Assembly (NCBI GenBank): GCA_036796695.1
Contig: DAIRCK010000012.1
Coordinates: forward strand, 8,524 to 72,523
Source: a bacterium
GTDB lineage: Bacteria > Hydrothermota > Tepidihabitantia > SM23-42 > JAOAFX01
Length of the DNA stretch: 64,000 nt
Direction: 5' to 3'
Part shown: positions 23,876 to 56,556 of the stretch, piece after piece
Numbering within the stretch: position 1 is the first letter of the stretch
Layout: every line of letters begins with the position of its first letter
Made by a program: the position numbers and the translations under genes
Notes under the pieces: generated by a model
Seen by the model: only the letters and a program-made list of their open reading frames with translations
The model's database searches: none
Told to the model about the DNA's origin: nothing

Positions 23876-23903
23876 ATTTTATTCAGATTTTCTCCTTTGT
23901 CAA
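23876..23903 (-). promoter_or_regulatory. Promoter of the disrupted T9SS gene (TTGACA-N16-TAAAAT, minus strand), followed by an AGGAGG RBS
   Basis: The hexamers can be read on the reverse complement; a 5' UTR of about 25 nt carries the RBS. Confidence 0.45.
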
Positions 23904-23921
23904 TGGCTTATGGATAAAATC

Positions 23922-26063
23922 TTATAGTGATGAGAATTCCCCAGGATGGACTTTGAATAATCCAAAGCCCACAACAAAATTCCAGAGTATGAATATCAAA
24001 GATGTGTTTGGTATTCCAAGTATTGGAATGAAGAGTATTGTTGTAATCAATGCCCCAAAACTCGCACCAAAAAGGTCAGTGCCATAAAGGATAGCAGCTT
24101 TCGGTTCACCAGCAATCTTTATTGCCAGTGGAAAATACATACCCACAAGAAATCCACCGATGAATACTAAAAGGGCAATGATGTAATTTGCATAGGATCC
24201 ATTTGTAAGTGCGAAGAGTAAGATTATTAAAAAATAAATACCGATGGCGCATTGAGTTGCTGATAACATACAAAGGTTCTTCCGGGATAGAGCAGAAGAT
24301 TGAAAGGATTTTATAATCCTGATTGAAAACAGAGTTCCTGATGCGAGTCCAAACATAAATAAACCTATGATAATTCCTATCCAGTTATAGACATATCCAT
24401 ATAGCACCTGGAATAATATCAAGAGTATTATCTCAGATGATATCCCTGCGGCACCGGTGGTGAATACTGATAGATAAATGACCGTCTTGCGATGCAAGAA
24501 GAAAAAAACAGGAAGTAAAAGTAAGAAGAAAAATCCTGATGGGATATTAAAGATTTTTATGAATAATTTTTTAAGCCCTTCAGATGAAATTCCACCCCAT
24601 AATAAGGCGTTGAAATAATAACAAACAGGCTTTAAATCGGTATTGATATAAGGTGTTGTTTTTTCAATTGATTGATTGATATATTTAATCCTTTCTTCTG
24701 TTAAACTATAGTCAAAAAAATATTGATTTACATAAAGAAGAGCAAGATTCCTATCCTGGATATTTTTCTTTAAAACCTCTTTGATTTCCATTCCAATTTC
24801 ATAATCCATTGCAATATATGTTGCTTTAGAAACAGGGAGTATGTGGACACCTTTAAAGACCTGTTTTAGTGTATTCTTAATCGTGCCCAGAAACTGGCTA
24901 TAAACAGGGCTGAGGATATCGGGTGTATAATTGACTCTTATGCAGAATATACCGTCCTTATTGAGTCTACTTTTTGATTCCTGAAAAAATTTTAGGGTGT
25001 AGTATCTATTCAATTGGGCATTTATCGGGTCAGAAAGATTGATAATAATACAATCAAATTGTTCCTTTGTATTCTTTATGTAATATCGACCATCACCTAT
25101 AAGCACATTTACCCTGTTATCAGAAATCTTAGAACCAATATATTTTTTAGAGATTTCAATTATCTTCGGATCGAGTTCCAGATAATTCAATTTCTTAATT
25201 GAAGGATGTTTTAGGATCTCATTTATACCCCCACCCATCCCACCGCCGATAAACAAAACATCTTCAGGTTTTTTATGAACCAATAATGGATAATGGACAG
25301 CCTCCTCTGAAGAATAAATATCTGGATATGCAAAATCAAAGATTCCGTTTAAATAACAATTTATCTGGTCACCAGTTCTTGTTAAAATAATATTCCCGTA
25401 TTTTGATTCAAAGACATCAATAAGACTTTGATGGGGCATCTGGAGTTTTCTCAATTGAAATTCTATGTGATTTACACCAATAAGCAAAAATAACGAAAAT
25501 ATAGAAATTAGCAAAAAAATTCTTTTTTTGATACATAGGTATCCGGCAAATAACAATAATGATATGAGTATAATAAAAATCCCAGAAGGAGGGATAATGG
25601 ATATTAAAATAAAAGATAATATGATACCACCAAAAAAAGAACCGATACATTCAATAAAATATACCTTTTGTGGTTTTAAAATAAAAGAGGCAGCAGGAAA
25701 CAGGGCACCGAAAATGATACAGGACGGAGATAGTGTAATGAATGAAATCATTATTATCCTGTAGAAATCAATGAATTCACCGAATGGTATTGAAAGAATA
25801 CCTCGTGCACTCCTTATGAATATAAAAGAAAATGTCAAACAGAAACACAATAAAAATAGAAGATACGCATAATTTTTTTCCGACTTATTTCTGAAATTTA
25901 TTTTTGAATATACAAGACTTCCCAGCCCGGTCAATAAGAGCCACAGGCATAAAACAATACCTGAAATCAATTCATTGCTCGAGAAAAACCCAAGCATTTC
26001 GCGGATGATTATTGTTTGGGCAATAACCGCCGCAATACCAGAGATAAATACTGCAACCTGCAT
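23922..26063 (-). CDS. Polytopic membrane protein with a central spermidine-synthase-like (polyamine aminopropyltransferase) domain
   Basis: More than 10 hydrophobic helices flank VLFIGGGMGG...LELDP-II...VLIGDGR-Y....FD-II-NL-DP, the SpeE-type Rossmann fold. Confidence 0.7.
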   Translation of the reverse strand: MQVAVFISGIAAVIAQTIIIREMLGFFSSNELISGIVLCLWLLLTGLGSLVYSKINFRNKSEKNYAYLLFLLCFCLTFSFIFIRSARGILSIPFGEFIDFYRIIMISFITLSPSCIIFGALFPAASFILKPQKVYFIECIGSFFGGIILSFILISIIPPSGIFIILISLLLFAGYLCIKKRIFLLISIFSLFLLIGVNHIEFQLRKLQMPHQSLIDVFESKYGNIILTRTGDQINCYLNGIFDFAYPDIYSSEEAVHYPLLVHKKPEDVLFIGGGMGGGINEILKHPSIKKLNYLELDPKIIEISKKYIGSKISDNRVNVLIGDGRYYIKNTKEQFDCIIINLSDPINAQLNRYYTLKFFQESKSRLNKDGIFCIRVNYTPDILSPVYSQFLGTIKNTLKQVFKGVHILPVSKATYIAMDYEIGMEIKEVLKKNIQDRNLALLYVNQYFFDYSLTEERIKYINQSIEKTTPYINTDLKPVCYYFNALLWGGISSEGLKKLFIKIFNIPSGFFFLLLLPVFFFLHRKTVIYLSVFTTGAAGISSEIILLILFQVLYGYVYNWIGIIIGLFMFGLASGTLFSIRIIKSFQSSALSRKNLCMLSATQCAIGIYFLIILLFALTNGSYANYIIALLVFIGGFLVGMYFPLAIKIAGEPKAAILYGTDLFGASFGALITTILFIPILGIPNTSLIFILWNFVVGFGLFKVHPGEFSSL

Positions 26064-26068
26064 AGAAG

Positions 26069-26096
26069 AGTATAATTAAATTTTTTTGGTTATCAA
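26069..26096 (-). promoter_or_regulatory. Promoter TTGATA-N16-TATACT (minus strand) only 5 nt upstream of the ATG; leaderless
   Basis: Read on the reverse complement of 26061-26100. Confidence 0.5.
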
Positions 26097-26106
26097 TATT
26101 TTTTTC

Positions 26107-26134
26107 TTGACTCTCCATCTTTTCTGCATAAAAT
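26107..26134 (+). promoter_or_regulatory. Promoter TTGACT-N16-TAAAAT for the thioredoxin-fold gene; the AAGGAGG RBS follows
   Basis: The hexamers and spacing are seen directly. Confidence 0.5.
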
Positions 26135-26155
26135 AACAGGGTCAAAGGAGGTTTG

Positions 26156-26422
26156 ATGAAAAAGATCTATATTTTTGGCAAACAGACCTGTCCGGTTTGT
26201 AAGGATGCCTATGAGAAATTTTGCTATTTTAAAGAAAAAAAGGGTTTTGATGCACCGATTGAATATATTGATATGGATACTGTTGACGGTATGGCAGAAG
26301 GTGCATTTTACGAAGTTTCAGATATCCCAACAATCATCATATTTGAAGATGGAAATGAGGTCATACGCTGGGCAAAAAAACCACCGGTGAGTGAGGAATT
26401 CTTACCCTATCTGGTAAAGTAA
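26156..26422 (+). CDS. Small thioredoxin/glutaredoxin-fold protein (C-P-V-C motif)
   Basis: YIFGKQTCPVCKDA... is a typical Trx-fold CxxC motif. The start ATG lies after the RBS. Confidence 0.6.
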   Translation: MKKIYIFGKQTCPVCKDAYEKFCYFKEKKGFDAPIEYIDMDTVDGMAEGAFYEVSDIPTIIIFEDGNEVIRWAKKPPVSEEFLPYLVK

Positions 26423-26482
26423 TTTTATTACTTTGATCTCGTGAGGTAAATCATAAATCCAGGTATAAAAAAAATTAAAAAA

Positions 26483-28329: not shown

Positions 28330-28347
28330 GTTCAAATAGTTCTGGAC

Positions 28348-28375
28348 TTGACTTTTAGTGCATTTTAACTAAAAT
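28348..28375 (+). promoter_or_regulatory. Promoter TTGACT-N16-TAAAAT upstream of bioY, then an AGGAGG RBS
   Basis: Seen directly. Confidence 0.5.
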
Positions 28376-28390
28376 ATTCCAGGAGGTAAA

Positions 28391-28972
28391 ATGAACATCA
28401 CTAAAACGATTGATTATCTTAATAATGGCAGAGTTATTTATTTTAGATGGTTAAAAGAATTGAGCTGGATTAAAAAACTTGGGCTTTCTTTATTATTTGC
28501 CTTGATTACTGGAGTCTCTGCCCAGATTCGGATTCCTCTTGGTTTTACACCGGTTCCGCTAACCGGCCAGGTCTTTGTAGTATTATTGAGTGGTGTCCTT
28601 TTAGGTGGATTTTGTGCTGGGATGAGTATGATTTTTTATTTAATCCTTGGTGCAGTCGGAGTTCCCTGGTTTGCAGGATTTCGCGCCGGAATAAATCCCG
28701 GACCGACCCTTGGTTATTTACTGGGATTCATCCCAGCAGCAATCTTTGTAGGACTCTTCGCCCACAGGCATAAAAAACTTTTCTACCAGATTTTGATTAT
28801 GCTCATTGGTTTATTATTGATATACCTTTTTGGTGCATTGAATTTTGCGTTTCTGCTTAAAACAGATTTTTTAACAACGATAAAACTTGCCGTCTTACCA
28901 TTCATACCATTTGATATCATAAAGGCAATACTTGCGGGATTTTTATCACGGGCGATAATACCTGATGATTGA
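28391..28972 (+). CDS. bioY: Biotin transporter BioY (ECF S-component family)
   Basis: IRIPLGFTPVPLTGQVFVVLLSGVLLG matches the BioY signature. Confidence 0.8.
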   Translation: MNITKTIDYLNNGRVIYFRWLKELSWIKKLGLSLLFALITGVSAQIRIPLGFTPVPLTGQVFVVLLSGVLLGGFCAGMSMIFYLILGAVGVPWFAGFRAGINPGPTLGYLLGFIPAAIFVGLFAHRHKKLFYQILIMLIGLLLIYLFGALNFAFLLKTDFLTTIKLAVLPFIPFDIIKAILAGFLSRAIIPDD

Positions 28973-33796: not shown

Positions 33797-34579
33797 TTAA
33801 AGTTTTGTCTTGGTCGCACTTACAAGATAGGCAGTATGTGTAATTCCCCGTTCTCTTGGACGGACACCCCTTTCCCTGACCAGGATATCCCTCTGAACGA
33901 CCTCACAAACCTTTATTCTAATAAAATTTGTTGATTGCAGAACTTCCACCGTTTTCTTTACCTGTTCAACATTCGGGCTCCAGGCAACTAAATGGTGCCC
34001 ACCCTTTAGTGCATCAAATGCCTTTGGCACAATATCCCAGGGTTCAGGCACATCTATGAATACCGCATCAATATTTTTTTGAATAAAACCCTCTATAGCC
34101 ACATCCCTGAGAAAATATTCAATCCTGCTTTTATATTTGTTCTTCTCTAAATTCTTTTTTGCATTTTCAAGAAATTCTTCATTCCTTTCATACGAATAGA
34201 CCACCCCATCAGGGGCAACAATCCTGGATAAAAATAATGTCAATGCACCGCTACCTGTGCCGACCTCTATCACCCTTGAACCCGGACCAATAGCAGTCTC
34301 AAATAGAAGGTAACCAAGGTCTTTTGGATATACTATCGTTGTCTTTCTTTTTATCTTCAACATTAAATCACTGATTGTGGGCTTAAGGCAATAAAAATTC
34401 CTGCCCAGATGGGTTTTTCCAACAAAACCAAATTCTTTGCTGATGATTTCATCGATCTTGATATCACCGAGATCTGTTGATAACTTCAGTTTAGGAACTA
34501 CCTGGATTAAAAATTGCCTTTTATCATCAAGATATATCAATACCAGATCACCCTGATTAATAGAATTCTCTTCCATCAA
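33797..34579 (-). CDS. trmI: tRNA (adenine58-N1)-methyltransferase TrmI-like
   Basis: Gcd14/TrmI family: VIEVGTGSGALT--L...D-VF-D-P-PW. Confidence 0.8.
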   Translation of the reverse strand: MMEENSINQGDLVLIYLDDKRQFLIQVVPKLKLSTDLGDIKIDEIISKEFGFVGKTHLGRNFYCLKPTISDLMLKIKRKTTIVYPKDLGYLLFETAIGPGSRVIEVGTGSGALTLFLSRIVAPDGVVYSYERNEEFLENAKKNLEKNKYKSRIEYFLRDVAIEGFIQKNIDAVFIDVPEPWDIVPKAFDALKGGHHLVAWSPNVEQVKKTVEVLQSTNFIRIKVCEVVQRDILVRERGVRPRERGITHTAYLVSATKTKL

Positions 34580-34630
34580 TTGAGTATATTGAAAAATATC
34601 TTATGGTCAATAGATTAAAATTTTCAAAAC

Positions 34631-34658
34631 TTGACTTTGTTATCTTCTCCATTATACT
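34631..34658 (+). promoter_or_regulatory. Promoter TTGACT-N16-TATACT, 6 nt upstream of the ATG; leaderless
   Basis: Seen directly. Confidence 0.5.
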
Positions 34659-34664
34659 CAATTA

Positions 34665-37100
34665 ATGAATATATATCTGATTTTCTTTTTCTTTTCAGGC
34701 ATTTCGGGCTTAATCTATGAAGTGGTCTGGGCAAGATTACTGTTACTTGCCTTTGGCTCAACAACTGTAGCAAATACCCTTGTGATAACTGCATTTATGT
34801 TGGGACTCGGTTTTGGTGGATTATATTTTGGCAATTATGTTGATCGAGAAAAGTCTCCCTATAAAATATTCTCATATCTTCAACTGGGTATTGGTTTATC
34901 TTCTTTTTTATTGCTATTCTTTCTTCCTCAATTACCACGATTGTCTAAAGCCATTCTAAATAATACACACTTAAGCCAGGCTGGTTATTTATCTTTTATA
35001 TTTATCATTACTTTTATCATATTATTCATTCCCACATTCTTAATGGGTGGAACATTTCCAGTAATGACGAAACTCTATGTGCGGGATGAAGATAAAATCA
35101 AAAATGGAATTGGATTGTTATACGGACTCAATACGTTTGGCGGGGTCATTGGTGCATTATCTGCAGGATTTTTTCTTATTAGAAATTTAGGACTTTCACT
35201 AACCCAGTCGATTGCAATTTTTATAAATTTTGCAATTGGCATTTTTATGTTTCATTCTCATCCAAAAATATCAACAGAAAATAGAGATTCTAAATCTGTT
35301 CTACAGGATTTCAAGCAGGCAGGTATCGAAAAATTAAAAAGATACCTGCCCATCATTGCTGGACTCACGGGATTTGCCAGCCTTGCCTGCGAAATCTTCT
35401 GGATCCGTGCATTATCGATATTTCTAACCAATTCCACCTACACCTTTACAATAATTTTGATTGTTTATTTAAGCGGAATTTTTATTGGAAGTATTATATT
35501 TGCAAAATTGTCAAAAAAATCAAACCTGATTAATATCTTTGCAACAGTCCAGATCCTTACAGGTTTATATATAGTAATCGGCTGCCTATTTTTAAACAGA
35601 CTGCCTGGATTATTATTTGGAATCCAGAATATCCTTGAAATTCCTTTTTTTAGAATGTTTTTGCCTGCACTAATTCTTTCTATTTTTGTCGTTCTCATTC
35701 CTACAATATTTATGGGTATAAGTTTCCCACTTATCTGTTCTCTATATAGTCAGGAGATTAAACACCTTGGCAACAAACTGGGCAATGTTTATTTTACAAA
35801 TACACTGGGCAGTGCACTCGGTTCTTTATTGGCAGGTATCTTTTTTATAAACTATCTTGGCGTCATAAGGGGATTAATTGCTGTTGGTTTGATCAATTTA
35901 CTGATCGGCTTTTTTTTCACACTGTATCTGAAAAACAGATCATTGAATATTATAATTTTTGTTTGTGCGATAATTATTTCTTTTTATTCAATACAAAATA
36001 AATTCATCCTTCCACCATCTATTTATCATTCACCCACCAGACAGGACCGTGTTCTATATTACAAAGAAACAAGGGATGGAACCATAATTGTGAGTGAAGA
36101 TCGCCTTACAGGCATAAGATCCTGCTATGTAAATAACAGCGCTGTAATTGGAACAACCTATGATGCCATAAAGGTTGTAAAAATGCTTGGGAATCTTCCT
36201 TTTATTTTCAATCCTGGTGCAAAAGATATATTGGTCATAGGTTTTGGGGTCGGTATCACGACCTCAAGCATTGCCCGTTATAATATAAAGAAAATAGACT
36301 GTGTTGAAATTTGCCCGGGTTTGCGCGAGGCGGCAAAATATTTCACAAATTTCAATAATTACATCTTCAAAAATCCATTAATACATTTTATTGCTAATGA
36401 TGGAAGAAATTTTTTGCTCCTGAGTAATAAGAAATATGATGCCATTTCCTGTGACCCCACACATCCAATTTTAGGCAGTGGTAATCTTTATACTAAGGAA
36501 TATTTTATGCTATGCAAAGAACATTTATCTCAAAATGGTGTAGTATGTCAGTATCTACCCTTCCATAAATTGAGTCCTGAGGAATTTAAATCTCTAATAA
36601 AAACCTTTGCTATAGTCTTTCCATATACCTCAATCTGGCTTGGTTATTCTCACGGTGTGCTTATAGGAACAAATGCTCCACAGACGATAAAATTTGAGTC
36701 CTTAAAAAATCTAAGAGATGAAATGCTCAATGACCCATATCTTCTTGCAGTCTCTTATCTTCTTGATACAGAGGCGATTAATAATTTCAGCACTGAGGCA
36801 AAAATTAATACTGATAACCATCCTGTCATAGAATTCTTCACACCATTAAGTCTGAGGAATGAAAACTGGGAGCAGAACATAAATGCATTATTAAAAAACA
36901 GAGTTGATGTCAGAAAAACCATTGAAGGTATCGACGATTTAGAAAAACTAAACCGGTACCTGCAGGGTCAAAATTATTTTATTGAAGGGTTAATTTATCA
37001 AAACAGAAGAGATAGGAAGTCATTGATCCAGGCGTTTAGAAAGGCGCTGGAGATAAATCCGGAAAATAATGAAATAAAGTTATTTCTGCAATCCCAGTGA
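34665..37100 (+). CDS. Membrane-anchored spermidine-synthase-like protein with C-terminal TPR-like region; paralog of 23922-26063
   Basis: An N-terminal multi-TM region and the SpeE-like core (ILVIGFGVGITT...VEICPGL...HFIANDGRNFL...YDAISCDPTHP). Confidence 0.7.
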   Translation: MNIYLIFFFFSGISGLIYEVVWARLLLLAFGSTTVANTLVITAFMLGLGFGGLYFGNYVDREKSPYKIFSYLQLGIGLSSFLLLFFLPQLPRLSKAILNNTHLSQAGYLSFIFIITFIILFIPTFLMGGTFPVMTKLYVRDEDKIKNGIGLLYGLNTFGGVIGALSAGFFLIRNLGLSLTQSIAIFINFAIGIFMFHSHPKISTENRDSKSVLQDFKQAGIEKLKRYLPIIAGLTGFASLACEIFWIRALSIFLTNSTYTFTIILIVYLSGIFIGSIIFAKLSKKSNLINIFATVQILTGLYIVIGCLFLNRLPGLLFGIQNILEIPFFRMFLPALILSIFVVLIPTIFMGISFPLICSLYSQEIKHLGNKLGNVYFTNTLGSALGSLLAGIFFINYLGVIRGLIAVGLINLLIGFFFTLYLKNRSLNIIIFVCAIIISFYSIQNKFILPPSIYHSPTRQDRVLYYKETRDGTIIVSEDRLTGIRSCYVNNSAVIGTTYDAIKVVKMLGNLPFIFNPGAKDILVIGFGVGITTSSIARYNIKKIDCVEICPGLREAAKYFTNFNNYIFKNPLIHFIANDGRNFLLLSNKKYDAISCDPTHPILGSGNLYTKEYFMLCKEHLSQNGVVCQYLPFHKLSPEEFKSLIKTFAIVFPYTSIWLGYSHGVLIGTNAPQTIKFESLKNLRDEMLNDPYLLAVSYLLDTEAINNFSTEAKINTDNHPVIEFFTPLSLRNENWEQNINALLKNRVDVRKTIEGIDDLEKLNRYLQGQNYFIEGLIYQNRRDRKSLIQAFRKALEINPENNEIKLFLQSQ

Positions 37101-37107: not shown

Positions 37108-37135
37108 TTGATTTTTACAATATTTTGCATATAAT
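37108..37135 (+). promoter_or_regulatory. Promoter TTGATT-N16-TATAAT, 6 nt upstream of the ATG; leaderless
   Basis: Seen directly. Confidence 0.5.
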
Positions 37136-37141
37136 AAAATT

Positions 37142-37534
37142 ATGTCTGGCATTATTTTTTTTAAAACCAGAGAGCTAAATAAAATTAAAGATTTTTATGC
37201 AAAAAGGATTGGAATGGAAATCTGGTTGGAACAGACAGATTGCGTGATTATGAAACATGATAATCTATTACTCGGTTTCTGTCAGCGCGAAGAAATGGAA
37301 AACCAGGGCGTTATCACATTCTTTTATGAAAATACTGACCAGGTCTATGAAATGTATAAAAAATTCCGCCTTGAGGCATTAGCCGAGCCAGCAGTAAATG
37401 AAAAATACAATATTTACCATTTTTTTATCAAAGACCCTGAAGGCAGATTGGTTGAATTTCAAACTTTCTTGCCTCAACAAAAGGGGACAGGCACTTTTTT
37501 TATTTCCATTTTGCTGGCCTACCTCGCGCTCTAA
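37142..37534 (+). CDS. Glyoxalase/VOC-family small protein
   Basis: The pattern resembles a VOC beta-alpha-beta-beta-beta module; the match is weak. Its 3' end overlaps the convergent transposase gene. Confidence 0.5.
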   Translation: MSGIIFFKTRELNKIKDFYAKRIGMEIWLEQTDCVIMKHDNLLLGFCQREEMENQGVITFFYENTDQVYEMYKKFRLEALAEPAVNEKYNIYHFFIKDPEGRLVEFQTFLPQQKGTGTFFISILLAYLAL

Positions 37535-38166: not shown

Positions 38167-39270
38167 TTATAATAAAGGTGCCTGTCCCCTTTTTAAGATT
38201 GTTTGAGCAATGTTTAAGGCAGAATTTCTTTTACCCAGTTTTAAAAGATTCTTTTTCATTTCAGCTATTTTTTCGCGATGTGAAAGGAGTTCATATATAA
38301 CCTTCTTTGCATTCTCCTTTGTTATTTTCAATCCTGCATTATGTTTGATAAAAAATTCTTCGTTTTTATCCTCAAGCCCTGGTATTGAATTAGCAAATAA
38401 AAGACAGGGACCAGCCTTTGTTGCCTCAGTCGTTGTTATACCACCTGCTTTTGTGATTAAAATATCGCAGACCGCTATCAATTCCTGAATTTTATCAACC
38501 ATTCCATAGACTTTCAGATTTGCCCTGCCTTTAAGTTTCTTTATCCTCTCCATCACCTCTTTATTTTCACCGCACAAAACGAGCAGGTCATAATCGAAGT
38601 CAACGATTTCCTGCACAATCTCAAACCATTCTCCACCAAATACCTTACTCCCCATAACCACAACCGAAATCCTTTCTAAAGACAATCCAAATCGTTTTCG
38701 TGCCGCATCTCTGTCAATCTCACCTTCTAGGGCAATATTTACAGGTATACCAAATGGATGGATCTGCGCTGCCTTAGCCCCGTATTTTAATATCTGTTCA
38801 CTCAAATCTTCGTTCGGGATAAAATAGTCATCGATCTCTTTATTAACCCAGTGGGGATGTATATAATAATCAGTTATAACCACGCCAATTCTAAATCCAA
38901 AATTTTTTTTGTATATTGCAGAATAATATGCTGGAGAAAAATGGGTACATAATATATAATCGGGTTTGTATTCCTGGATTAAATCAGAAAATCTACAGGC
39001 GGTCATTTTATGAAATGCATAGAGTGTTTTATCCCCTCCGGTTTTAACTCCCACACCCTGATAAAAGATCTTTAGAATCCAGGTGGCATTTTTCTGACAG
39101 TATTCATAAATATTTTTATACATAAATCCATAGACCGGTAAGACCCATTTGAAGCAATCTTCAAATCTGACCTGTGATTCTGGTGACAATCTTTCTATCC
39201 CCTGTTTTATTGCATTTGCTGCCTTAATATGCCCGGCACCAATCGGCACTGCAAGAAGAAGAACTTTCAT
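38167..39270 (-). CDS. GT28-family diacylglycerol glycosyltransferase (MGDG synthase / UgtP-like)
   Basis: MGDG_synth-type N-terminus (LLAVPIGAGHIKAANAI) and a C-terminal GT-B domain (GGITTTEA). Confidence 0.75.
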   Translation of the reverse strand: MKVLLLAVPIGAGHIKAANAIKQGIERLSPESQVRFEDCFKWVLPVYGFMYKNIYEYCQKNATWILKIFYQGVGVKTGGDKTLYAFHKMTACRFSDLIQEYKPDYILCTHFSPAYYSAIYKKNFGFRIGVVITDYYIHPHWVNKEIDDYFIPNEDLSEQILKYGAKAAQIHPFGIPVNIALEGEIDRDAARKRFGLSLERISVVVMGSKVFGGEWFEIVQEIVDFDYDLLVLCGENKEVMERIKKLKGRANLKVYGMVDKIQELIAVCDILITKAGGITTTEATKAGPCLLFANSIPGLEDKNEEFFIKHNAGLKITKENAKKVIYELLSHREKIAEMKKNLLKLGKRNSALNIAQTILKRGQAPLL

Positions 39271-39275
39271 AGAAA

Positions 39276-39303
39276 ATTATATAGATTTAACCTAAATTTT
39301 CAA
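39276..39303 (-). promoter_or_regulatory. Promoter TTGAAA-N16-TATAAT (minus strand), 5 nt upstream of the ATG of the GT28 gene; leaderless
   Basis: Read on the reverse complement of 39271-39310. Confidence 0.5.
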
Positions 39304-40546: not shown

Positions 40547-40646
40547 ACAGAAATTCTATCCTTGCCGATGAATGTAGTAATAATTCTCCATTTCCATCAC
40601 AGAGATTATATATATTTTTTCGAAAAAGTCAATCAGATGTATCCTA

Positions 40647-40674
40647 TTGACTATTCAATTTTTTTGCCTATAAT
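40647..40674 (+). promoter_or_regulatory. Promoter TTGACT-N16-TATAAT, 9 nt upstream of the glnA ATG; leaderless or near-leaderless
   Basis: A perfect -10 and a near-perfect -35. Confidence 0.55.
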
Positions 40675-40683
40675 TATTTTACA

Positions 40684-42030
40684 ATGACAAAAAAAAATAT
40701 AATTGACCAAAAAAGACAATTAATCAAAGAAGGTATAAAATTTATTGACCTGAAGTATTGCACCCTCATTGGAACACTAAATCACATCACGATCCCGGTT
40801 GAACGTTTTGATGAGATAATTGCTGAAGGTGTCGGGGTTGATGGCTCAAGTCTACCCGGATACAAAGGTGTGCAGAAAGGTGATATGCTCTTATTTCCAG
40901 ATTTAGAGACTGGATTTATTGACCCTTTCTTTGAAGATAAAACGATTTCTTTCTTATGCAGTGTTTATCTGCCGGATAAATTGATTCCTTATGAACGGGA
41001 TTCAAGAAATATTGCTAAAAAGGCAACGAATTATTTAAAAAAAGTCCTTGATACCCAGGCATTTTTTCAACCTGAACTTGAATTTTATGTGTTTGAAAAA
41101 TGCGCATATGGTGAAGGTCCTGGTTATGGTTATTATCGGATTGAATCAGGCGATGAAACAGGGAACACAACAATTTATCCTATACGGTATAAAGGTGGAT
41201 ATCATATTGGTCCACCCGAAGACCGTTATGCAAATTTCCGCAATGAATTGGTAAAATTGCTCAACCAGTGTGGAATAAGGGCAAAATATCATCACCATGA
41301 AGTAGGCTCAAAAGGACAGATGGAGATAGAATTGTTGCTGGAACCACTGGTTAAATCTGCAGATAATCTATTTCTGGCAAGATATCTTTTGAAATCCTTT
41401 GCGAAAAATCGGAATATTTTTCTAACATTTATGCCCAAACCATTCATAGGCGAACCCGGGAATGGCCTCCATCTCCATCAATATCTTGGAAAAAAGAATA
41501 AATCATTATTTTATGACCCCAAATCCGAAGGAAACTTGAGCGAATTATGTCTGAAATATATTGGTGGCATTCTCCACCATTCACGGGCCCTCTGTGCTTT
41601 TACTAATCCGAGCACGAACTCGTATAAAAGGCTGATTCCCGGTTTTGAGGCACCAACCTATACAGATTTTGCTTTAGGCAGCAGGACCTCTGCAATTCGT
41701 GTTCCTGCATATATAAGAAACAAAAAAGAACTTGATATAGAATATCGTATCCCGGACGCAACAAGCAATCCATATCTGGCAATGAGCGCTGTGCTTCTCG
41801 CCGGGCTTGATGGAATAGAAAAAAATCTGAAACCGGATAAAAAAGAAAAACTGCCAACAAATTCTTATGAAGCGATAAATGCATTAAAGGAAGACCATAA
41901 ATTCCTGCTAAAAGGTGATGTATTTAATACCGACCTTATTGAACGATGGATTGAAGTAAAAACAAAGGAATTTGAAGAAGTTCATTTAAGACCACATCCT
42001 TATGAGTTTAATCTATATTTAGGTGTATGA
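40684..42030 (+). CDS. glnA: Glutamine synthetase type I
   Basis: GS beta-grasp and catalytic motifs (…KPF-GE-GNG-H-H…, …SNPYLA-SA-L-AG…). Confidence 0.9.
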   Translation: MTKKNIIDQKRQLIKEGIKFIDLKYCTLIGTLNHITIPVERFDEIIAEGVGVDGSSLPGYKGVQKGDMLLFPDLETGFIDPFFEDKTISFLCSVYLPDKLIPYERDSRNIAKKATNYLKKVLDTQAFFQPELEFYVFEKCAYGEGPGYGYYRIESGDETGNTTIYPIRYKGGYHIGPPEDRYANFRNELVKLLNQCGIRAKYHHHEVGSKGQMEIELLLEPLVKSADNLFLARYLLKSFAKNRNIFLTFMPKPFIGEPGNGLHLHQYLGKKNKSLFYDPKSEGNLSELCLKYIGGILHHSRALCAFTNPSTNSYKRLIPGFEAPTYTDFALGSRTSAIRVPAYIRNKKELDIEYRIPDATSNPYLAMSAVLLAGLDGIEKNLKPDKKEKLPTNSYEAINALKEDHKFLLKGDVFNTDLIERWIEVKTKEFEEVHLRPHPYEFNLYLGV

Positions 42031-47500: not shown

Positions 47501-47826
47501 TTTACAAAACCTGTGGTCATCGTATCCGTGGCAATGACCAGATACCTGGTCCCACCAGACTGAACAGTGATAATGCGCAGGGTATCGTCGGTGCTTCCTT
47601 TAAAATATTTACCGATTGCAACCCTCCGTGTCAGATTAGCGGTAGCACCTGTCCATACCCGGTTTGTGTCATATGCTGGAGCTGGTGTTCTTATTACTGT
47701 CTCCGCATTTTTTGCAAGAAAGATAGGAATTTCTTTAATCGGCTGGTATTCCTTGGCATAGAGAAACGAAATAGTATATAAGGCCACCAGCACAAGAACC
47801 AGTGAGACTTTTTTTATAGGATTCAT
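44572..47826 (-). CDS. Large secreted FG-GAP repeat protein (1084 aa) with T9SS C-terminal domain
   Basis: A signal peptide; repeated GDVDGD/GDI-AD/GDIN motifs each followed by a G/GG; and the CTD SPNPFTKEIVIQY...AIYNAIGQ...GVYFVRM. Confidence 0.8.
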   Translation of the reverse strand: MNPIKKVSLVLVLVALYTISFLYAKEYQPIKEIPIFLAKNAETVIRTPAPAYDTNRVWTGATANLTRRVAIGKYFKGSTDDTLRIITVQSGGTRYLVIATDTMTTGFVKNGFRIETPYSFTSGSTAYAVGVGDVDGDEYTDILAAHSASPYRLIWFEWDGTFTNNWVARDSFAVNASINDITFGDGDNNPATRDFYINIAQSTPSAAIMKVLWNGTSWDTTKILLSGAVSARGVAVGDIRADLPDNEIYVVGGTRIWQVYWNGINYDTLTISSGVSNANDLVIGDINPLLAGNELGVVHGGTSYQVSIWNWTGAFWSGIAWVFTTTWGTTDNTIAIGDVLTDNPGNELVLVGGASTTAIPYIFWYAPNGSAWIMTLQKPVASQSDYGVVIGDINRFRTLNQEIILSGGGSLVEAQQVDRINDIGTYYIRMVNPTSIINSPDTIIATIFNSGSNPQSGFQVQFRFKNNPINGSVTYSGTLPCGAIDSVKIPVVMNFLGLDTLIVFTNLAGDVNPVNDTTKLHIEVYDESTKVASGFNTILFPPANASTSPAINTPYTWWRTVLAGTYNWTRYTTGSNPTCSPLEGYAMAGYPSFSASSGSASRLRTHIIDIGPQHRKLKLRFYMFKDPGYSTNADSIIVEYSYNDTAYYPVAAFHRYNPVANWYVHDVEIGDFSANKKVYVGFRARSGYGNNMFIDSVRVFATTPTSLNNDAGVIGMTIKKPVVVNNPAEVRIQIKNFGLNTLTSLPVFYTTGVVDTTWETWTGNLSIGEVATYTFTQGFIPMVSGEDTLWAGVRLATDENPANDTTSIRFTICPEYHNPPYTANFDEPWLNSTEPPYCGWYIIDGGSQTPQVIDNNDWHRLVSASPPRTVARVYWSPVELHNDWLVSPRFDCSVNGIYNLSYWHYYNDYTTDRLDSGRVLVSTDGGTNWQTIHIYSNLDDSGYKYVDITPIVAGYNNVRFAFHYVANDEFYWMIDDFVLDFNVGISEVNKDKKIEYFLNASPNPFTKEIVIQYGIQQSGDLEIAIYNAIGQNVKTLVKKNLDKGIYSIRWNGIDENNRRLPSGVYFVRMTAGEKRITHKILMMK

Positions 47827-47891
47827 AATAAACCTCCTGTGCTTAAAATTATATGCATAATTAAGGTCTTTGTCAAGAGAATTGCACGCAC

Positions 47892-47919
47892 TTGACTTTT
47901 CATAAAAAATGTTTAATAT
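47892..47919 (+). promoter_or_regulatory. Promoter TTGACT-N16-TAATAT, 6 nt upstream of the ATG; leaderless
   Basis: Seen directly. Confidence 0.5.
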
Positions 47920-47925
47920 TAGTTT

Positions 47926-48879
47926 ATGAAATTACCCAAGGGCAGACCGATACTTGAGAACACACGACTGGAATTTATTAATCTCGATAATGTATTAACT
48001 GCTTCAAAGCGGGAAAGGGCACATCGTATTTCTGGATACATTTCTATTATCTATCCGGAAATGGAAGAATTGATATTCCTAAAACAGGGAGAACCCTTCA
48101 ATGCTGCAAGGCTTAGTATGAAAGAAAGAACTATAATCCCCATAACCGAGGTCATTGAAAAAGCAAAAAAGGCGACATCAGGGATTTTATCAGAATATGC
48201 AACAGATGAAGTATTGCTCAATATGATTATAACTTCAATCACAAACCAGCCGATAAAAGCAGGTATTGACCTCAATAGACTCCAGCCCAAGATTCTCATA
48301 GATAAATTAAAAACAACAAAATTTGATGGCTTTATCTGGATAAAAGCAGGTATTGAAGAATCTTATATCGCCTTTAAACAAGGAGAACTTCTGGGATTAT
48401 ATGCTGCCGGAACAAATGAAAAAATTCAGGATGAAAACATCGTTTCCAAGTATCTGACCAAACCGAATATCACAATAGCAATATTTGACCGGATTGAAGT
48501 TGGTATGCCGGTTCAGGCAACTCCAGCCCAGGTTGAGATGTTTTGTAAGATTATTGCAGCAATGATGAAGAATTATGCTAAACCACTCGGAAATACAATG
48601 GTATTAAAGACCGTGATAATGGCAAAATCAACTGCCCAGAAAGATTATCCATTTATAAACGAATTTCAAATTGATGCTGATTTTAATATCACTGCCAAAC
48701 TTGTCATAGAGCCTAAAGTCCTTACCCGGGGCATTGCGCGCTGGATGGATTTAATCTTTGAATCCTTTTCTACAATCTTAGGGAAAGAAAGTGAGAACAT
48801 TGCAAAGAAGGTTCTCAATGATTATCGTTTTGCCCTGATGTCTTTGAACTTTTTTGATTACACAAAATTAAAGATTTAA
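47926..48879 (+). CDS. Hypothetical protein (317 aa), no recognisable domain
   Basis: A long ORF with a good promoter and operon context (the stop overlaps the rsmI start). Confidence 0.5.
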
Positions 48880-51223: not shown

Positions 51224-51251
51224 TTGACATTCAAAAAATTTTATGTAAAAT
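51224..51251 (+). promoter_or_regulatory. Promoter TTGACA-N16-TAAAAT, 6 nt upstream of the nadB ATG; leaderless
   Basis: Seen directly. Confidence 0.5.
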
Positions 51252-51257
51252 GTTTTG

Positions 51258-52784
51258 ATGCCCAAGAAGGTAGATTTTCTGGTTGTGGGCTCCGGTGTTG
51301 CAGGGCTAACCTTCGCAACCAAGAGTGCAAAATACGGTAGTGTTTTAATTCTTACAAAAAAACACAAGGCAGAATCAAATACTAATTATGCCCAGGGCGG
51401 GATCGCTGGTGTCTTCGGTAAAGATGATTCAATTGAGAGCCACATAGAAGATACTTTAAAAGCAGGAGATGGATTATGCCATCGAGAGGCAGTTGAAATA
51501 ATGGTAAAAGAAGGTCCTGGTCTGATAAAAGAATTATATCGGATGGGGTGTCGTTTCTCTATTGATAGTGAGGGTAATTTTGAACTCGGACAGGAAGGTG
51601 GCCATTCCCATCGCAGAATTGTCCATGCAAGAGACTATACAGGTCAGGAGATTGAACGGGTCCTGATTGAAGAGGCAAAAAAATATGATTTTACAATAAG
51701 CGAGAATGAAGTGGTTCTTGATTTGATTGTGCAGGATGGTGAATGTCTTGGTATCTATTACTTTGATGTTGATACCCAGCGCATAGAAACGATATTTGCA
51801 AGCGCAACGGTTTTGGCAACTGGTGGTATTGGTCAGGTATATGAACATACGACAAATCCACCAATCGCTACAGGTGATGGTATTGCAATGGCTTTCCGCG
51901 CGGGTGCAGAAATAGCAAATATGGAGTTTGTCCAATTCCATCCCACAGCGGTATATAATATAAAGATAGAAGGCAGATCATTTTTAATCTCTGAGGCAGT
52001 AAGAGGTGAAGGGGGGATACTGAAAACGAAAGCAGGCAAACCTTTTATGAAGAAATATCATCCACTCGAAAATCTTGCACCCAGAGATGTAGTCGCCCGT
52101 GCTTGTGTTACAGAAATGCTCGAGAACAAAGACCCTTATGTCCTCCTTGATGTCACGCATCTCAAACCTGATTATATAAAAAATCGATTCCCTACAATCT
52201 ATGAAACATGCCTGTGCTGGGGTATTGATATAACCAGAGAACCGATACCTGTCGTTCCCGCAGCCCATTATCTATGTGGTGGGATAAAAGTAAATACCTG
52301 GGGCGAAACATCGATAAAAAGATTATTCGCCCTGGGCGAGTGCGCCTGTACTGGAGTCCACGGCGCAAACCGACTCGCCTCAAATTCTTTGCTTGAGGCG
52401 CTTGTTTTTGCTACGAGGGCGGCAAAACGTGTTTCTCACATCAATTCACTCCGGTTAAAAAAGCAACCGAGATTAAAACCTTCTGTGAGCACCGGGCCTG
52501 ACTTTAAGATTCAGATAAAACAGTTGATGTCACAATATGTGAATGTTATTAGAACCGAAGAAGGACTGAAAAAAGCAAGTGAAATCTTGAATGAATACAA
52601 TAAAAATTTTGAACCAGGTATTCATCTGAAAAATGCTGAATCACGTAATATGCTTGATGTTGCAGGATTGATTGTTGAATCCTGCCTTATACGAAAGGAA
52701 TCCAGAGGACTCCATTACATTCTGGATTATCCTGAAAAAGATGATGAATTTTTAAGAGATACGGTCATTCGTCGGACACCATAA
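51258..52784 (+). CDS. nadB: L-aspartate oxidase
   Basis: FAD-binding DFLVVGSGVAGL, the succinate-DH/fumarate-reductase flavoprotein fold and HGANRLASNSL. Confidence 0.85.
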   Translation: MPKKVDFLVVGSGVAGLTFATKSAKYGSVLILTKKHKAESNTNYAQGGIAGVFGKDDSIESHIEDTLKAGDGLCHREAVEIMVKEGPGLIKELYRMGCRFSIDSEGNFELGQEGGHSHRRIVHARDYTGQEIERVLIEEAKKYDFTISENEVVLDLIVQDGECLGIYYFDVDTQRIETIFASATVLATGGIGQVYEHTTNPPIATGDGIAMAFRAGAEIANMEFVQFHPTAVYNIKIEGRSFLISEAVRGEGGILKTKAGKPFMKKYHPLENLAPRDVVARACVTEMLENKDPYVLLDVTHLKPDYIKNRFPTIYETCLCWGIDITREPIPVVPAAHYLCGGIKVNTWGETSIKRLFALGECACTGVHGANRLASNSLLEALVFATRAAKRVSHINSLRLKKQPRLKPSVSTGPDFKIQIKQLMSQYVNVIRTEEGLKKASEILNEYNKNFEPGIHLKNAESRNMLDVAGLIVESCLIRKESRGLHYILDYPEKDDEFLRDTVIRRTP

Positions 52785-52835
52785 TGATTAAAAATGATAA
52801 AAACAATAAAGATTTATATTTAAAAGGAAAGGAGC

Positions 52836-53117
52836 ATGCAATCAGGAGAGATTGAAGTTTTAATGGAGATTGGACAATCATACCTCCTGAACAAGGAGTA
52901 TGATAAAGCAATAGCAAAATTTACTGAAGCATTAAAAATCAATCCCCATGACCCGGAATTATATTATTATCTGGGTCTGGCTTATGAACAATCAGGGAGA
53001 TTAGAACAGGCGAAGATGATGTATCTAAGAGCATTAGATCTTGATAGGGGATTCAGCAATGCTGAGATAAGGTTGTCTGAAGTTAATAATAAAATATCTC
53101 AGGAGAAAAAGATGTAG
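52836..53117 (+). CDS. Small TPR-repeat protein
   Basis: Two to three TPR-like helical hairpins (AIAKFTEALKINPHDPELYYYLGLAY). Confidence 0.5.
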   Translation: MQSGEIEVLMEIGQSYLLNKEYDKAIAKFTEALKINPHDPELYYYLGLAYEQSGRLEQAKMMYLRALDLDRGFSNAEIRLSEVNNKISQEKKM

Positions 53118-53128
53118 GATTAAATGTT

Positions 53129-54310: not shown

Positions 54311-54697
54311 TTATTTTTTGAGATTTAGTTCAACTGTGTCTACACCACCCGAGAGTGTTAAATACCAGTATTGTCTTGGCCAGCCTGGATTATCTACGCT
54401 GTCAAGGAGCACAGCAACTATCTGCCCTCCTTGAAGACTCGATGTTCCATAACAGACACTATCCATTTCAAAAAATCCCGGCAACGAATCATTTGAATAA
54501 CCGGTTGTAACTGGTCGGTATCTAAAATAATCAATGTCATCAGGATTGATATCCCTTATTAGTAATTTAAGTCCATTGATGCCTCCAAGCGTATCATATT
54601 TTGCCCAGCCATACAGATGGGTAAAATAAAAGTCTTCTTTTTTAGTGCAATCAAATATGACAAAACAAATAATTATTAAAAAGATAATCTTTTTCAA
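54311..54697 (-). CDS. Small secreted protein or lipoprotein, hypothetical
   Basis: A signal peptide with a lipobox-like …VIFDCTKK. Confidence 0.4.
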   Translation of the reverse strand: MKKIIFLIIICFVIFDCTKKEDFYFTHLYGWAKYDTLGGINGLKLLIRDINPDDIDYFRYRPVTTGYSNDSLPGFFEMDSVCYGTSSLQGGQIVAVLLDSVDNPGWPRQYWYLTLSGGVDTVELNLKK

Positions 54698-54768
54698 TTC
54701 AACCTCCTATTGGCTTTAATTATATCAAAGAAATTTAAAAAGTCAAGTTCTCTGATATGTATGTGATA

Positions 54769-54796
54769 TTGACCACATAATATTTTTGAATATAAT
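54769..54796 (+). promoter_or_regulatory. Promoter TTGACC-N16-TATAAT, 5 nt upstream of the iorA ATG; leaderless
   Basis: Seen directly. Confidence 0.5.
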
Positions 54797-54801
54797 ACCC
54801 T

Positions 54802-56556
54802 ATGAATAACAACAAAAAAATACTTTCAGGAAATGAAGCAGTGGCAAGAGGTGCCTGGGAAGGCGGGTGCCATTTTGCCGCTGCATATCCAGGGACACCA
54901 TCGACTGAAATCTTGGAAAATATAATTAAATATCCAGATATTTATGCGGAATGGTCAGTTAATGAAAAAGCAGCACTTGAAATTTGTGCTGGTGCCTCAT
55001 TCGTTGGTGCACGGGCAATAACTGCAATGAAACATGTCGGTTTGAATGTTGCTGCTGACCCTATGTTCACACTTGGTTATACAGGTGTAACCGGTGGACT
55101 TGTCATTGTCACCTGCGACGACCCTGGATTGTGGTCGTCACAGAATGAACAGGACAATCGTCATTATGCAAGGCACGCAAAGATTCCGATGCTTGAACCA
55201 TCAGACTCAAATGAGGCAAAGATATTCACAAAAATCGCATTTGATATATCTGAAGAATTTGACACAGTCTTTCTTTTGAGACTCACAACCCGTATTTCTC
55301 ACTCATCAGGGATTGTAGAAATCGGAGCACGTAAAGAAATTCCAATAAAAGGCTATGAAAAAAATATCAAAAAAAGGCTCGTCCTTCCTGCCCATGCACG
55401 GATATTACACAGGGTCGTAGAAGAAAGGTTAAAAAAAATCGGTGATTATTCAGAAAATTTTCCTTATAATAAAATTGAATGGGGTGATAAAAATCTTGGA
55501 ATAATAAGTTCAGGCATAGCCTATATGTATGCAAGAGAAGTATTTCCTGAGGCAAGTTTTTTGAAACTTTCTTTCACCTATCCATTACCAAAGAATTTAA
55601 TCAAAAAATTTGCCCGTGGTGTGAAGAAAGTGCTCGTTATTGAAGAAGGAGACCCGGTACTTGAACAGGAGATAAAGGCAATGGGGATTGATGTTACAGG
55701 AAAGGAGAAAATCCCTTTATGTGGCGAGCTCGATCCGACCGTGATAAAAAAGAGTTTTAACAAAAAGGTCTACAAACCAATAGAATTGAAAGAAATTCCG
55801 GACCGACCACCGGTTCTGTGCCCGGGCTGTCCTGAGCGAGGTATATTCTATGTGATAAACAAATTGAAACTCGTTGCCACCGGTGATATCGGTTGTTACA
55901 CACTTGGCGCACTGCCTCCATTAAATGCAATGGATACCTGTATCTGTATGGGTGCTTCAGTAACGAATGCACATGGAATGGATAAGGCAGGTGGAAAAGA
56001 GTTAAGCAAAAAACTTGTTGCCGTGATTGGTGATTCTACATTCTTCCATATGGGTATAACAGGACTTGTCAATGCGGTGTATAATAAAGGAAATCTTAAT
56101 CTTATAATCCTTGATAATTTAACCACGGCAATGACCGGCCATCAACCCCATCCTGGAACAGGAAAACTCGCCCGCGGCGAAGAAGGCAAAAGGATTTTAC
56201 CCGAGGATGTTGCCCGTGGCTGCGGTGTTGAATTTGTCCGCGTTATTGACCCAATGAATTTAAAGGAAACCGAACAGGCAATAAAGGATGCCTTAAATTA
56301 TGAAGGGGTGACCGTCCTCGTATTCAGAAGTCCTTGCGTGTTTATGAAAAAACCAGCCCCATATCTTGTTGTTGATGTTGAAAAATGTAATGGCTGCAAA
56401 CTCTGTATGAGACTTGGCTGTCCAGCAATAATCTTAAAAAAGATAGAATCAAAAGAAAAACCTGTGGCATATATTGAGCCAACACTCTGCAATGGTTGTA
56501 ATCTATGTATACAATTATGCCAGCATAATGCAATCCATTCTTCAAAAAAGGAATAA
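54802..56556 (+). CDS. iorA: Indolepyruvate:ferredoxin oxidoreductase alpha subunit
   Basis: An N-terminal 2-oxoacid:ferredoxin oxidoreductase TPP domain plus a C-terminal 2x[4Fe-4S] (CNGCKLC...CP, CNGCNLC...C). Confidence 0.85.
   Translation: MNNNKKILSGNEAVARGAWEGGCHFAAAYPGTPSTEILENIIKYPDIYAEWSVNEKAALEICAGASFVGARAITAMKHVGLNVAADPMFTLGYTGVTGGLVIVTCDDPGLWSSQNEQDNRHYARHAKIPMLEPSDSNEAKIFTKIAFDISEEFDTVFLLRLTTRISHSSGIVEIGARKEIPIKGYEKNIKKRLVLPAHARILHRVVEERLKKIGDYSENFPYNKIEWGDKNLGIISSGIAYMYAREVFPEASFLKLSFTYPLPKNLIKKFARGVKKVLVIEEGDPVLEQEIKAMGIDVTGKEKIPLCGELDPTVIKKSFNKKVYKPIELKEIPDRPPVLCPGCPERGIFYVINKLKLVATGDIGCYTLGALPPLNAMDTCICMGASVTNAHGMDKAGGKELSKKLVAVIGDSTFFHMGITGLVNAVYNKGNLNLIILDNLTTAMTGHQPHPGTGKLARGEEGKRILPEDVARGCGVEFVRVIDPMNLKETEQAIKDALNYEGVTVLVFRSPCVFMKKPAPYLVVDVEKCNGCKLCMRLGCPAIILKKIESKEKPVAYIEPTLCNGCNLCIQLCQHNAIHSSKKE

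Follow-up and report, generated by a model that had tools for sequence, protein, structure and literature searches.

Translation from leaderless transcripts, without a Shine-Dalgarno (SD) sequence, has been established in mycobacteria, in Deinococcus and in archaea (PMC6028130, PMC4007540, PMC12340547). In the genome classification of GeneMarkS-2, the corresponding 'group C' takes in 90% of Actinobacteria and 97% of Deinococcus-Thermus, and 25-50% of the operons in these genomes are leaderless (PMC6028130). In group C, as among the 'TA-led genes' of Mycobacterium, Streptomyces and Corynebacterium (Zheng et al. 2011, PMC3160421), the -10 element lies about 6-8 nucleotides (nt) from the start codon of the first gene of an operon. 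The Deinococcus-Thermus lineage shows a '-10 motif adjacent to ORFs' (open reading frames), the -10 directly bordering the ORF in some 30% of genes or more, alongside genes that have both a promoter and an SD (PMC12340547; D. deserti dRNA-seq, PMC4007540); in D. deserti, 14 leaderless attenuation leader peptides have also been predicted (PMC4007540). Here we describe promoters placed in the same way in a 64-kb window (64,000 nt of contig DAIRCK010000012.1, the whole stretch of DNA analysed) from a bacterium of candidate division WOR-3, a phylum named Caldifarciminota at NCBI. The reading that we prefer, and to which we assign a probability of about 0.8, is that leaderless transcripts coexist with SD-led ones in this bacterium and that both would be produced from one promoter type.

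The WOR-3 arrangement is like group C and the TA-led genes in the distance of the -10 element from the operon-first start, in the lack of an SD on the leaderless genes and in its retention on the others. The share of such units is also comparable, since 36% of first genes across the loci that we examined (38/105), and about half in the window, stand against 25-50% of operons in group C. However, group C genomes are high in GC and have essentially a TANNNT element with little or no -35, whereas the WOR-3 genome has about 38% GC, and in its leaderless promoters a near-consensus TTGACA stands at a fixed distance of 16 nt from the -10. The -35 also marks a difference from Deinococcus, where the -10 alone is sufficient and the -35 dispensable; in WOR-3 a -35 element at N16 accompanies essentially every case. 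The Deinococcus starts and their translation have been shown experimentally, while the WOR-3 case is known from sequence alone. WOR-3 was not among the phyla surveyed in the group C and TA-led studies, and a literature search for leaderless initiation in WOR-3 found no paper in the library searched. Thus, what is new here is the lineage; the architecture itself is the known leaderless type of group C.

The first-pass annotation had listed eight genes of the window in which a promoter ends 3-9 nt before the ATG. We read the anatomy from the 70 nt upstream of each of these starts, taking the gap as the number of nucleotides between the -10 hexamer and the start codon. The elements TTGnnn-N16-TAnnnT were present before all eight genes, as claimed, and the -10 hexamer ended 5-9 nt from the first ATG of the ORF. 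The upper end of the claimed range was therefore borne out and the lower end was not, a gap of 3 nt fitting only a TTG that directly abuts the nadB ATG; this TTG is the sole other candidate start upstream of any of the eight. Each of the eight ATGs is the first in its ORF, and an in-frame stop precedes it by 1-11 codons. The absence of an SD was also upheld, as GGAG, GAGG and AGGA do not occur in the 5-9-nt gaps of the leaderless-type genes, which leave no room for one. All eight genes stay on the list, from which a methyltransferase gene at 34576 (-), lolA at 57280 and a short leader ORF at 22605 (-) had been missed. All 10 long leaderless-type genes of the window start with ATG and have gaps of 5-9 nt. 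The spacer was 16 nt in 8 of the 8 listed genes, but the claim that this length is invariant had to be given up: among strict matches in the window and 14 other WOR-3 loci there were 42 with N16, 5 with N17 and 0-3 with any other length, so that N16 accounts for about 90%, and the gene at 47826 (-) uses N17.

For the promoter count we searched for the strict motif TTGACW-N16-TAWAAT and derived the expectation from dinucleotide-preserving shuffles of the window. Ten matches were found, compared with 0.12 expected (shuffle maximum 2). Eighteen intergenic promoter-like sites were recognised in the window, 10 of which abut long ORFs and 2 short ORFs, the remaining 6 lying 15-30 nt from an SD-preceded start. 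Ten of 17 -10 positions fell within 5-9 nt, for which p is ~2e-9, a rough figure, if positions are taken as uniform over 5-100 nt. In the window alone, 9 of 21 genes crudely classed as 'first' are of the leaderless type, to which nadB is to be added.

The distance from each promoter-like match to the next ORF start was also measured over 283 kb, comprising the window and the 14 WOR-3 loci. The distribution peaked sharply at 5-6 nt (35 matches) and tailed off towards 11 nt; it peaked again at 17-21 nt, where the starts were mostly preceded by AGGAGG-type SD sites. The two peaks, one of leaderless-type and one mostly of SD-led genes, are in keeping with two initiation modes in one genome, as had been proposed. 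A fixed classifier (TTG..., N16 or N17, TA...T, at most 3 mismatches, gap 4-11 nt) recognised 38 of 105 operon-first genes of WOR-3 compared with 1 of 100 operon-internal genes (Fisher p = 4e-12). It recognised none of 602 first genes in the 66 non-WOR-3 loci from the scan that had supplied the WOR-3 loci, and on shuffled upstream regions it gave a mean of 0.34 and a maximum of 3. An independent replicate drew on 80 metagenome loci around hisG. In close relatives, defined by a HisG identity of 75% or more, 10 of 43 first genes and none of 45 internal genes were recognised; in distant loci the figure was 2 of 171 first genes. Roughly, leaderless-type promoters would thus serve about a third to half of the WOR-3 operons or transcription units. 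The restriction of the signature to operon-first genes marks it as a promoter rather than a ribosome-binding site of the non-SD kind.

The 46 starts of the leaderless class comprised 42 ATG, 4 GTG and no TTG, and the base at -1 was a pyrimidine in 33 of the 46. Transcription starts usually prefer a pyrimidine at -1 and a purine at +1, and a pyrimidine before the A of ATG fits this preference. The spacer was T-rich from about -20 to -16, with T at -16 in 40 of 46 and G at -15 in 21 of 46. Relative to the TG of the classical extended -10, the resulting TG at -16/-15 is shifted upstream by one position. The E. coli optimum for the spacer is 17 bp, and the N16 spacer of WOR-3 is one base shorter. 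The N16 spacing and the position of the TG may reflect a lineage-specific geometry of sigma-A.

A scan of the genome collection with GlnA retrieved candidate division WOR-3 genomes at 61-90% identity (L001-L013 and L018), and the window itself comes from a bacterium of this phylum. For glnA, 13 of 13 WOR-3 orthologues (61-89% identity) keep TTGAC[AT]-N16-TATA[AC]T at 6-11 nt before the start, in surroundings that are unalignable. The arrangement is also kept in orthologues of seven other leaderless-type genes. In L001, the orthologue of the methyltransferase gene 34576 (-) has TTGACC-N16-TATACT and a 6-nt gap, the orthologue of the 811-aa protein gene (63% identity) and that of the MGDG-synthase-family gene have the same promoters as in the window at gaps of 6 and 5 nt, and the nadB orthologue has TTGACA-N16-TAGAAT at 6 nt; in L002, the iorA orthologue has TTGACC-N16-TATAAT at 5 nt. 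For the 130-aa gene at 37142, the fetched loci yielded no orthologue. The clearest footprint came from the 317-aa gene at 47926, for which six orthologues could be compared. Variation affects 25 of the 26 columns that precede the -35 element but only 8 of the 34 from -34 to -1; within the first 20 codons third positions make up 16 of the 19 variable sites, and third-position variation begins at codon 3. The promoter footprint therefore adjoins the coding footprint, with nothing between them. Among WOR-3 relatives the 317-aa protein itself (47926-48879, +) shows 89-96% identity, compared with only 78-89% for the GlnA of these relatives, and it had no Pfam, NCBIfam or PDB sequence match.

These observations suggest the following scenario. 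The housekeeping RNA polymerase would recognise a near-consensus TTGAC(A/T)-N16-TA(T/A)AAT promoter with a T-rich spacer; at the leaderless-type units 5-6 nt (range 5-11) separate its -10 hexamer from the ATG. Initiating, as is normal, at a purine some 7 nt downstream of the -10, the polymerase would make the A of AUG the 5' end of the transcript; with the spacing seen at glnA, the transcript would begin 1-4 nt upstream of AUG. The ribosome with initiator tRNA would bind the 5'-terminal AUG directly and without an SD, by analogy with Actinobacteria, Deinococcus-Thermus and archaea. Other operon-first genes would use the same promoter 15-30 nt upstream, together with a minimal leader that carries AGGAGG. 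The transcription start at the ATG is a prediction made solely from the position of the -10 hexamer. The window gene glnA is accordingly predicted to be near-leaderless, with a transcription start 0-3 nt before its ATG. Enzymes of an essential type (GlnA, NadB and IorA) would under this scenario depend on translation of leaderless mRNA, having no other start signal.

Several points weigh against the coexistence of leaderless and SD-led transcripts as we propose it. At 37108, 39303 and 51224 only 41-46 nt separate the promoter from the preceding gene on the same strand, and read-through transcripts that are translated without an SD are possible there. Gaps of the glnA type (7-11 nt) imply leaders of 1-5 nt and not of zero. 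Four starts of the leaderless class are GTG, usually a poorer leaderless start codon. The start of lolA is ambiguous, the sole such case among the units. The counts over loci, including the 38 of 105, contain orthologous promoters and near-duplicates (L004/L013 and L084/L085) and therefore measure consistency and not independent events. Finally, the predicted folding energy of the first 40 nt compared with internal windows (-3.4 vs -4.3 kcal/mol, p = 0.008) differs by a small amount that is confounded by lower GC, and since such reduced 5' folding is seen at most gene starts we gave it little weight.

The alternative that survives best, although we consider it improbable, is that the promoters are real but that their adjacency to the start codons is a by-product of compact intergenic regions, expression coming mostly from read-through or upstream promoters on leadered transcripts that are translated independently of an SD. 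The intergenic regions are indeed short (41-137 nt), and the three promoters close behind a same-strand gene are what this explanation would lead one to expect. However, the divergent intergenic regions (88-137 nt) are filled by two facing promoters and have no space for others. Compaction alone would not give a peak 2 nt wide at 5-6 nt, a preference for ATG and a pyrimidine at -1, nor would it keep the spacing constant among relatives at 61-89% identity.

A second alternative, which seems to us very improbable, is that the start codons were mis-assigned and that the true starts lie downstream on ordinary leadered mRNAs whose leaders are open by chance. Two genes lend it something: in the 130-aa gene at 37142 an ATG follows AAGGA at codon 25, and in lolA a second ATG, at codon 6 behind GGAAGGA, was picked by the JGI gene caller (206 aa). 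Several observations oppose it. Residue 5 of the window's NadB aligns with residue 9 of E. coli L-aspartate oxidase (NadB, 1chu), and residue 11 opens the GxGxxG dinucleotide-binding motif of the window protein. The first 60 codons of GlnA contain no alternative start, Pfam domains begin within 6-18 residues of the N-terminus in GlnA, NadB, IorA and MGDG synthase, the figure being 14-18 for all of these but NadB, and the third-position variation of the 317-aa gene sets in almost at once. The JGI calls on the matching contig (Ga0326321_1000045) give the same lengths for MGDG synthase, glnA, the 317-aa gene, nadB and iorA. Among the leaderless-type genes, none but lolA has an SD-preceded alternative start. 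Because in the L002 orthologue of lolA the sole ATG before the signal peptide is the one next to the promoter (6-nt gap), we class lolA as probably leaderless rather than SD-led. A downstream displacement of the starts, the outcome named at the outset as contrary to leaderless initiation, is thus not what the NadB alignment, GlnA and the JGI lengths point to, with lolA left ambiguous.

A third alternative borrows from the Bacteroidetes. Por_Secre_tail sorting domains are typical of the FCB superphylum, and the window encodes such C-terminal domains, as used by the Bacteroidetes-type (type IX) secretion system. The proposal that the TA-rich hexamer is an A/U-rich non-SD ribosome-binding element on longer transcripts, of the Bacteroidetes-type 'group B', has in its favour these domains, the A/T-rich composition of the hexamer, its position where a ribosome-binding site would be and the non-SD initiation reported as common in the FCB group (PMC6028130), but it is the least probable of the three, because the motif is nearly absent before internal genes and strong AGGAGG sites occur elsewhere in the genome, while the hexamer belongs to sigma70-consensus promoters, being always coupled to a TTGAC(A/T) 16 nt upstream that is meaningless to a ribosome, and conservation stops abruptly upstream of the -35. 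In the survey of Zheng et al., leaderless genes were found in only 1 of 37 Bacteroidetes/Chlorobi genomes (PMC3160421).

Further, indirect support for leaderless translation comes from a short ORF ahead of a biosynthetic operon. The ORF has 45 codons (22605-22468, -), with the sequence VVKIYLNKYLKTDCSVRTTSDLFALNHNHTRFHFNHYWYWHFRAQ followed by the stop and ending in HFNHYWYWHFRAQ, and it lies about 260 nt upstream of a 17-gene operon (-) that extends from hisG at 22344 to a DAHP synthase gene at 7302. The operon order is hisG, hisC, hisB, hisH, hisA, hisF-hisI, trpD, trpC, a chorismate mutase/prephenate dehydrogenase gene, trpF, aroE, aroC, aroK-aroB, aroQ, trpB, trpA and the DAHP synthase gene. 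The last 21 codons of the ORF include 5 His, 2 Trp, 2 Tyr and 3 Phe codons (12 in total), and the ORF runs into the 5' arm of a terminator hairpin with a U-run (about 22486-22423; fold z-score -3.8). We regard it as a candidate mixed His/Trp/Tyr/Phe leader-peptide attenuator, itself putatively leaderless. Stalling on the regulatory codons, which overlap the 5' arm of the terminator, would place the ribosome over that arm.

The leader layout is common to 11 metagenome loci (HisG 65-92% identity); the loci listed with the ORF are L082-L086, L088-L092, L094 and L095. The promoter is TTGACA-N16-TATA[AC]T in 10 of the 11, with TTAACA in L082, and the start, GTG or ATG, always lies 6-9 nt after the -10 hexamer. 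The frame is open for 32-46 codons in the 11 loci, for which the chance is 0.05-0.2 per lineage. The C-terminus reads HYWYWHFR, followed by AQ or T and the stop, in 9 of the 11 loci, L091 and L092 being different. In L092, where only his genes are in view, the leader encodes HGHHHHNH instead. The codon composition of the leader thus appears to follow the content of the operon, although L091 offers no clean fit. Constraint at the coding level is seen in an in-frame 3-nt insertion in L090 and in synonymous CAT-to-CAC and TAC-to-TAT changes in L086. Since a leader peptide must be translated to work, and since the starts of these ORFs always lie at the predicted 5' end of the transcript, the leader gives independent support for leaderless translation.

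At the RNA level, a 5' segment, GUGGUUAAG, pairs with CUUAACCAC at codons 25-27 of the leader ORF. The two segments hardly vary, the departures being one A-to-G change, seen in two sequences, and a single mismatch in L083. The inner hairpin shows compensatory changes, and the outer stem of the terminator, which is 11 bp long and GC-rich (columns 123-133:165-175, with further inner pairs), is invariant together with its U-run in 8 sequences. Besides the 5' stem and the inner hairpin, RNAalifold gave only the terminator and a weak hairpin that covers the regulatory codons, and no separate antiterminator helix was found in the his leader. The Rfam models His_leader, Trp_leader and Phe_leader did not match it at the gathering threshold, no relevant match appeared at E <= 1, and a permissive Rfam scan of the leader returned only chance-level matches to microRNAs and sRNAs.

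The WOR-3 leader opens its transcript with a short ORF, and in this it is like the polycysteine ORFs of mycobacteria (bioRxiv 10.1101/834739) and the leader peptides of D. deserti (PMC4007540). It shares with the classical his, trp and phe leader peptides a richness in the amino acids made by the operon and a terminator that follows. It differs from the known leader peptides in that its mixed codons match a fused his-trp-aro operon and in that the ORF enters the 5' arm of the terminator. The fusion of his, trp and common aromatic (shikimate) genes in one operon, with genes that overlap or are closely spaced, was also observed in its own right, and the order from his to trpD/trpC/tyrA is kept in the relatives L082, L084, L086, L088-L090 and L094.

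A second short ORF was found at the promoter of the CitMHS transporter gene (40605-40632, -). It has 13 codons (MEMENYYYIHRQG and stop; 40597-40556, -), begins 7 nt after the -10 hexamer and ends 9 nt before the transporter ATG. We rejected it as another leaderless leader peptide, since its conservation does not extend to the L001 orthologue, where the promoter region differs; it is possibly a chance ORF.

If our reading is right, it bears first on annotation. The annotation of starts depends on the initiation modes that are known, and tools centred on the SD would mis-annotate WOR-3, which is known almost wholly from metagenome-assembled genomes; the call of lolA is an example. Abundant leaderless initiation would extend to a low-GC candidate phylum, which bears on whether it is ancestral or arose repeatedly. 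The full consensus with its fixed 16-nt spacer would make WOR-3 transcription units predictable from sequence, and the conserved leaderless leader peptide would be a built-in functional test of leaderless translation. To us the odds look evenly balanced that WOR-3 is a third major lineage, after Actinobacteria and Deinococcus-Thermus, with phylum-wide leaderless initiation, one that combines low GC, full -35/-10 promoters with a rigid 16-bp spacer and a leaderless attenuator of a fused his-trp-aro operon. A WOR-3 isolate has recently been cultured (PMC12285271), and the predictions of leaderless initiation are therefore now experimentally testable.

The SD-led first genes use the same promoter. 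In this class the -10 hexamer lies 15-30 nt from the start, with AGGAGG-type sites between. As transcription would begin about 7 nt past the -10, their leaders would be only about 8-24 nt long, as against the 20-30 nt given in the first-pass annotation. For bioY a leader of about 9 nt is predicted, so that its mRNA would begin more or less at the SD. In the window, AGGAGG-type sites precede the 6 leadered first genes, and 17 of 33 operon-internal genes have SD-like sites before them. Of the genes earlier described as SD-led, bioY, the thioredoxin-fold gene and clpC remain in this class, to which two secreted-protein genes and a 128-aa gene also belong; lolA is withdrawn from it in view of its L002 orthologue. 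The strong AGGAGG ascribed to the class applies as an AGGAGG-type site, clpC having AAGGGGG. The promoter at 23876-23903 (-) belongs to a frameshifted secreted-protein gene and not to bioY, which starts at 28391.

Table 1. Promoter units of leaderless type, the leader unit, SD-led units and divergent intergenic regions with paired promoters (window coordinates).
Feature	Strand	Extent	-35	-10	Spacer	-10 to start	Start	Product or remark
26063 unit	-	26061..26096	TTGATA 26096-26091	TATACT 26074-26069	N16	5 nt	ATG 26063	713-aa membrane protein, spermidine-synthase-like domain (Pfam, NCBIfam); N-terminus is a transmembrane segment
34576 unit	-	34574..34610	TTGACC 34610-34605	TATACT 34588-34583	N16	6 nt	ATG 34576	GCD14/TrmI-like methyltransferase; divergent from and back to back with the 34665 promoter
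34665 unit	+	34631..34667	TTGACT	TATACT 34653-34658	N16	6 nt	ATG 34665	811-aa fused MFS/spermidine-synthase-like protein
37142 unit	+	37108..37144	TTGATT	TATAAT 37130-37135	N16	6 nt	ATG 37142	130 aa, weak glyoxalase-like similarity
39270 unit	-	39268..39303	TTGAAA 39303-39298	TATAAT 39281-39276	N16	5 nt	ATG 39270	MGDG-synthase-family glycosyltransferase, 367 aa
glnA unit	+	40647..40686	TTGACT	TATAAT 40669-40674	N16	9 nt (tattttaca)	ATG 40684	
47926 unit	+	47892..47928	TTGACT	TAATAT 47914-47919	N16	6 nt	ATG 47926	317-aa protein; heads operon with TP_methylase-family methyltransferase, CDP-alcohol phosphatidyltransferase, HflX-like GTPase
nadB unit	+	51224..51260	TTGACA	TAAAAT 51246-51251	N16	6 nt	ATG 51258	promoter within 42-nt gap after upstream gene
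iorA unit	+	54769..54804	TTGACC	TATAAT 54791-54796	N16	5 nt	ATG 54802	
lolA unit	+	57246..57282	TTGACT	TAAAAT 57268-57273	N16	6 nt	ATG 57280	probably leaderless
Leader unit	-	22423..22639	TTGACA 22639-22634	TATACT 22617-22612	N16	6 nt	GTG 22605	candidate leader peptide of the his-trp-aro operon
bioY	+	28348..28393	TTGACT	TAAAAT	N16	15 nt (attccAGGAGGtaaa)	ATG 28391	SD-led
Thioredoxin-like gene	+	26107..26158	TTGACT	TAAAAT	N16	21 nt incl. AAAGGAGG	ATG 26156 (or TTG 26153)	SD-led; 88 aa; divergent from the 26063 unit
Secreted-protein gene	-	47824..47876	TTGACA	TATAAT	N17	21 nt incl. AGGAGG	ATG 47826	SD-led; 1084 aa, Por_Secre_tail
128-aa gene	-	54695..54746	TTGACT	TATAAT	N16	21 nt incl. AGGAGG	TTG 54697	SD-led; MFS transporter gene next
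clpC	+	63168..63227	TTGACA	TAAAAT	N16	29 nt incl. AAGGGGG	TTG 63225	SD-led
Frameshifted secreted-protein gene	-	23848..23903	TTGACA	TAAAAT	N16	25 nt incl. AAAGGAGG	ATG 23850	SD-led
Divergent intergenic region		26064-26155						paired promoters
Divergent intergenic region		34577-34664						paired promoters
Divergent intergenic region		40547-40683						paired promoters
Divergent intergenic region		47827-47925						paired promoters
Divergent intergenic region		54698-54801						paired promoters

The divergent gene pairs share intergenic regions that two consensus promoters, standing back to back, nearly fill, and typically one promoter of a pair is leaderless and the other SD-led. An Rfam scan of the whole window at the gathering threshold gave no match, so that known riboswitches or leader families explain none of the upstream regions, and a tRNA scan of the window found none.

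In the frameshifted secreted-protein gene (22716-23850, -), the ATG at 23850 opens a 25-codon signal-peptide ORF with its stop at 23775-23773, the continuation lies in another frame at 23783-23076, and a Por_Secre_tail-like C-terminal domain is found in a further ORF at 22979-22716 (-). This gene is either a pseudogene or the result of an assembly error. An IS200-like Y1 transposase-family gene (220 aa; 37500-38162, -) follows the MGDG-synthase-family gene at a distance of 4 nt and shares 35 nt with the 3' end of the convergent 130-aa gene. The genes of two FG-GAP-repeat proteins, at 779-2521 and 5226-6995, match each other exactly over at least 58 nt close to the 3' end (about 2037-2100 and 6508-6570, +), and the two proteins probably carry paralogous C-terminal domains.

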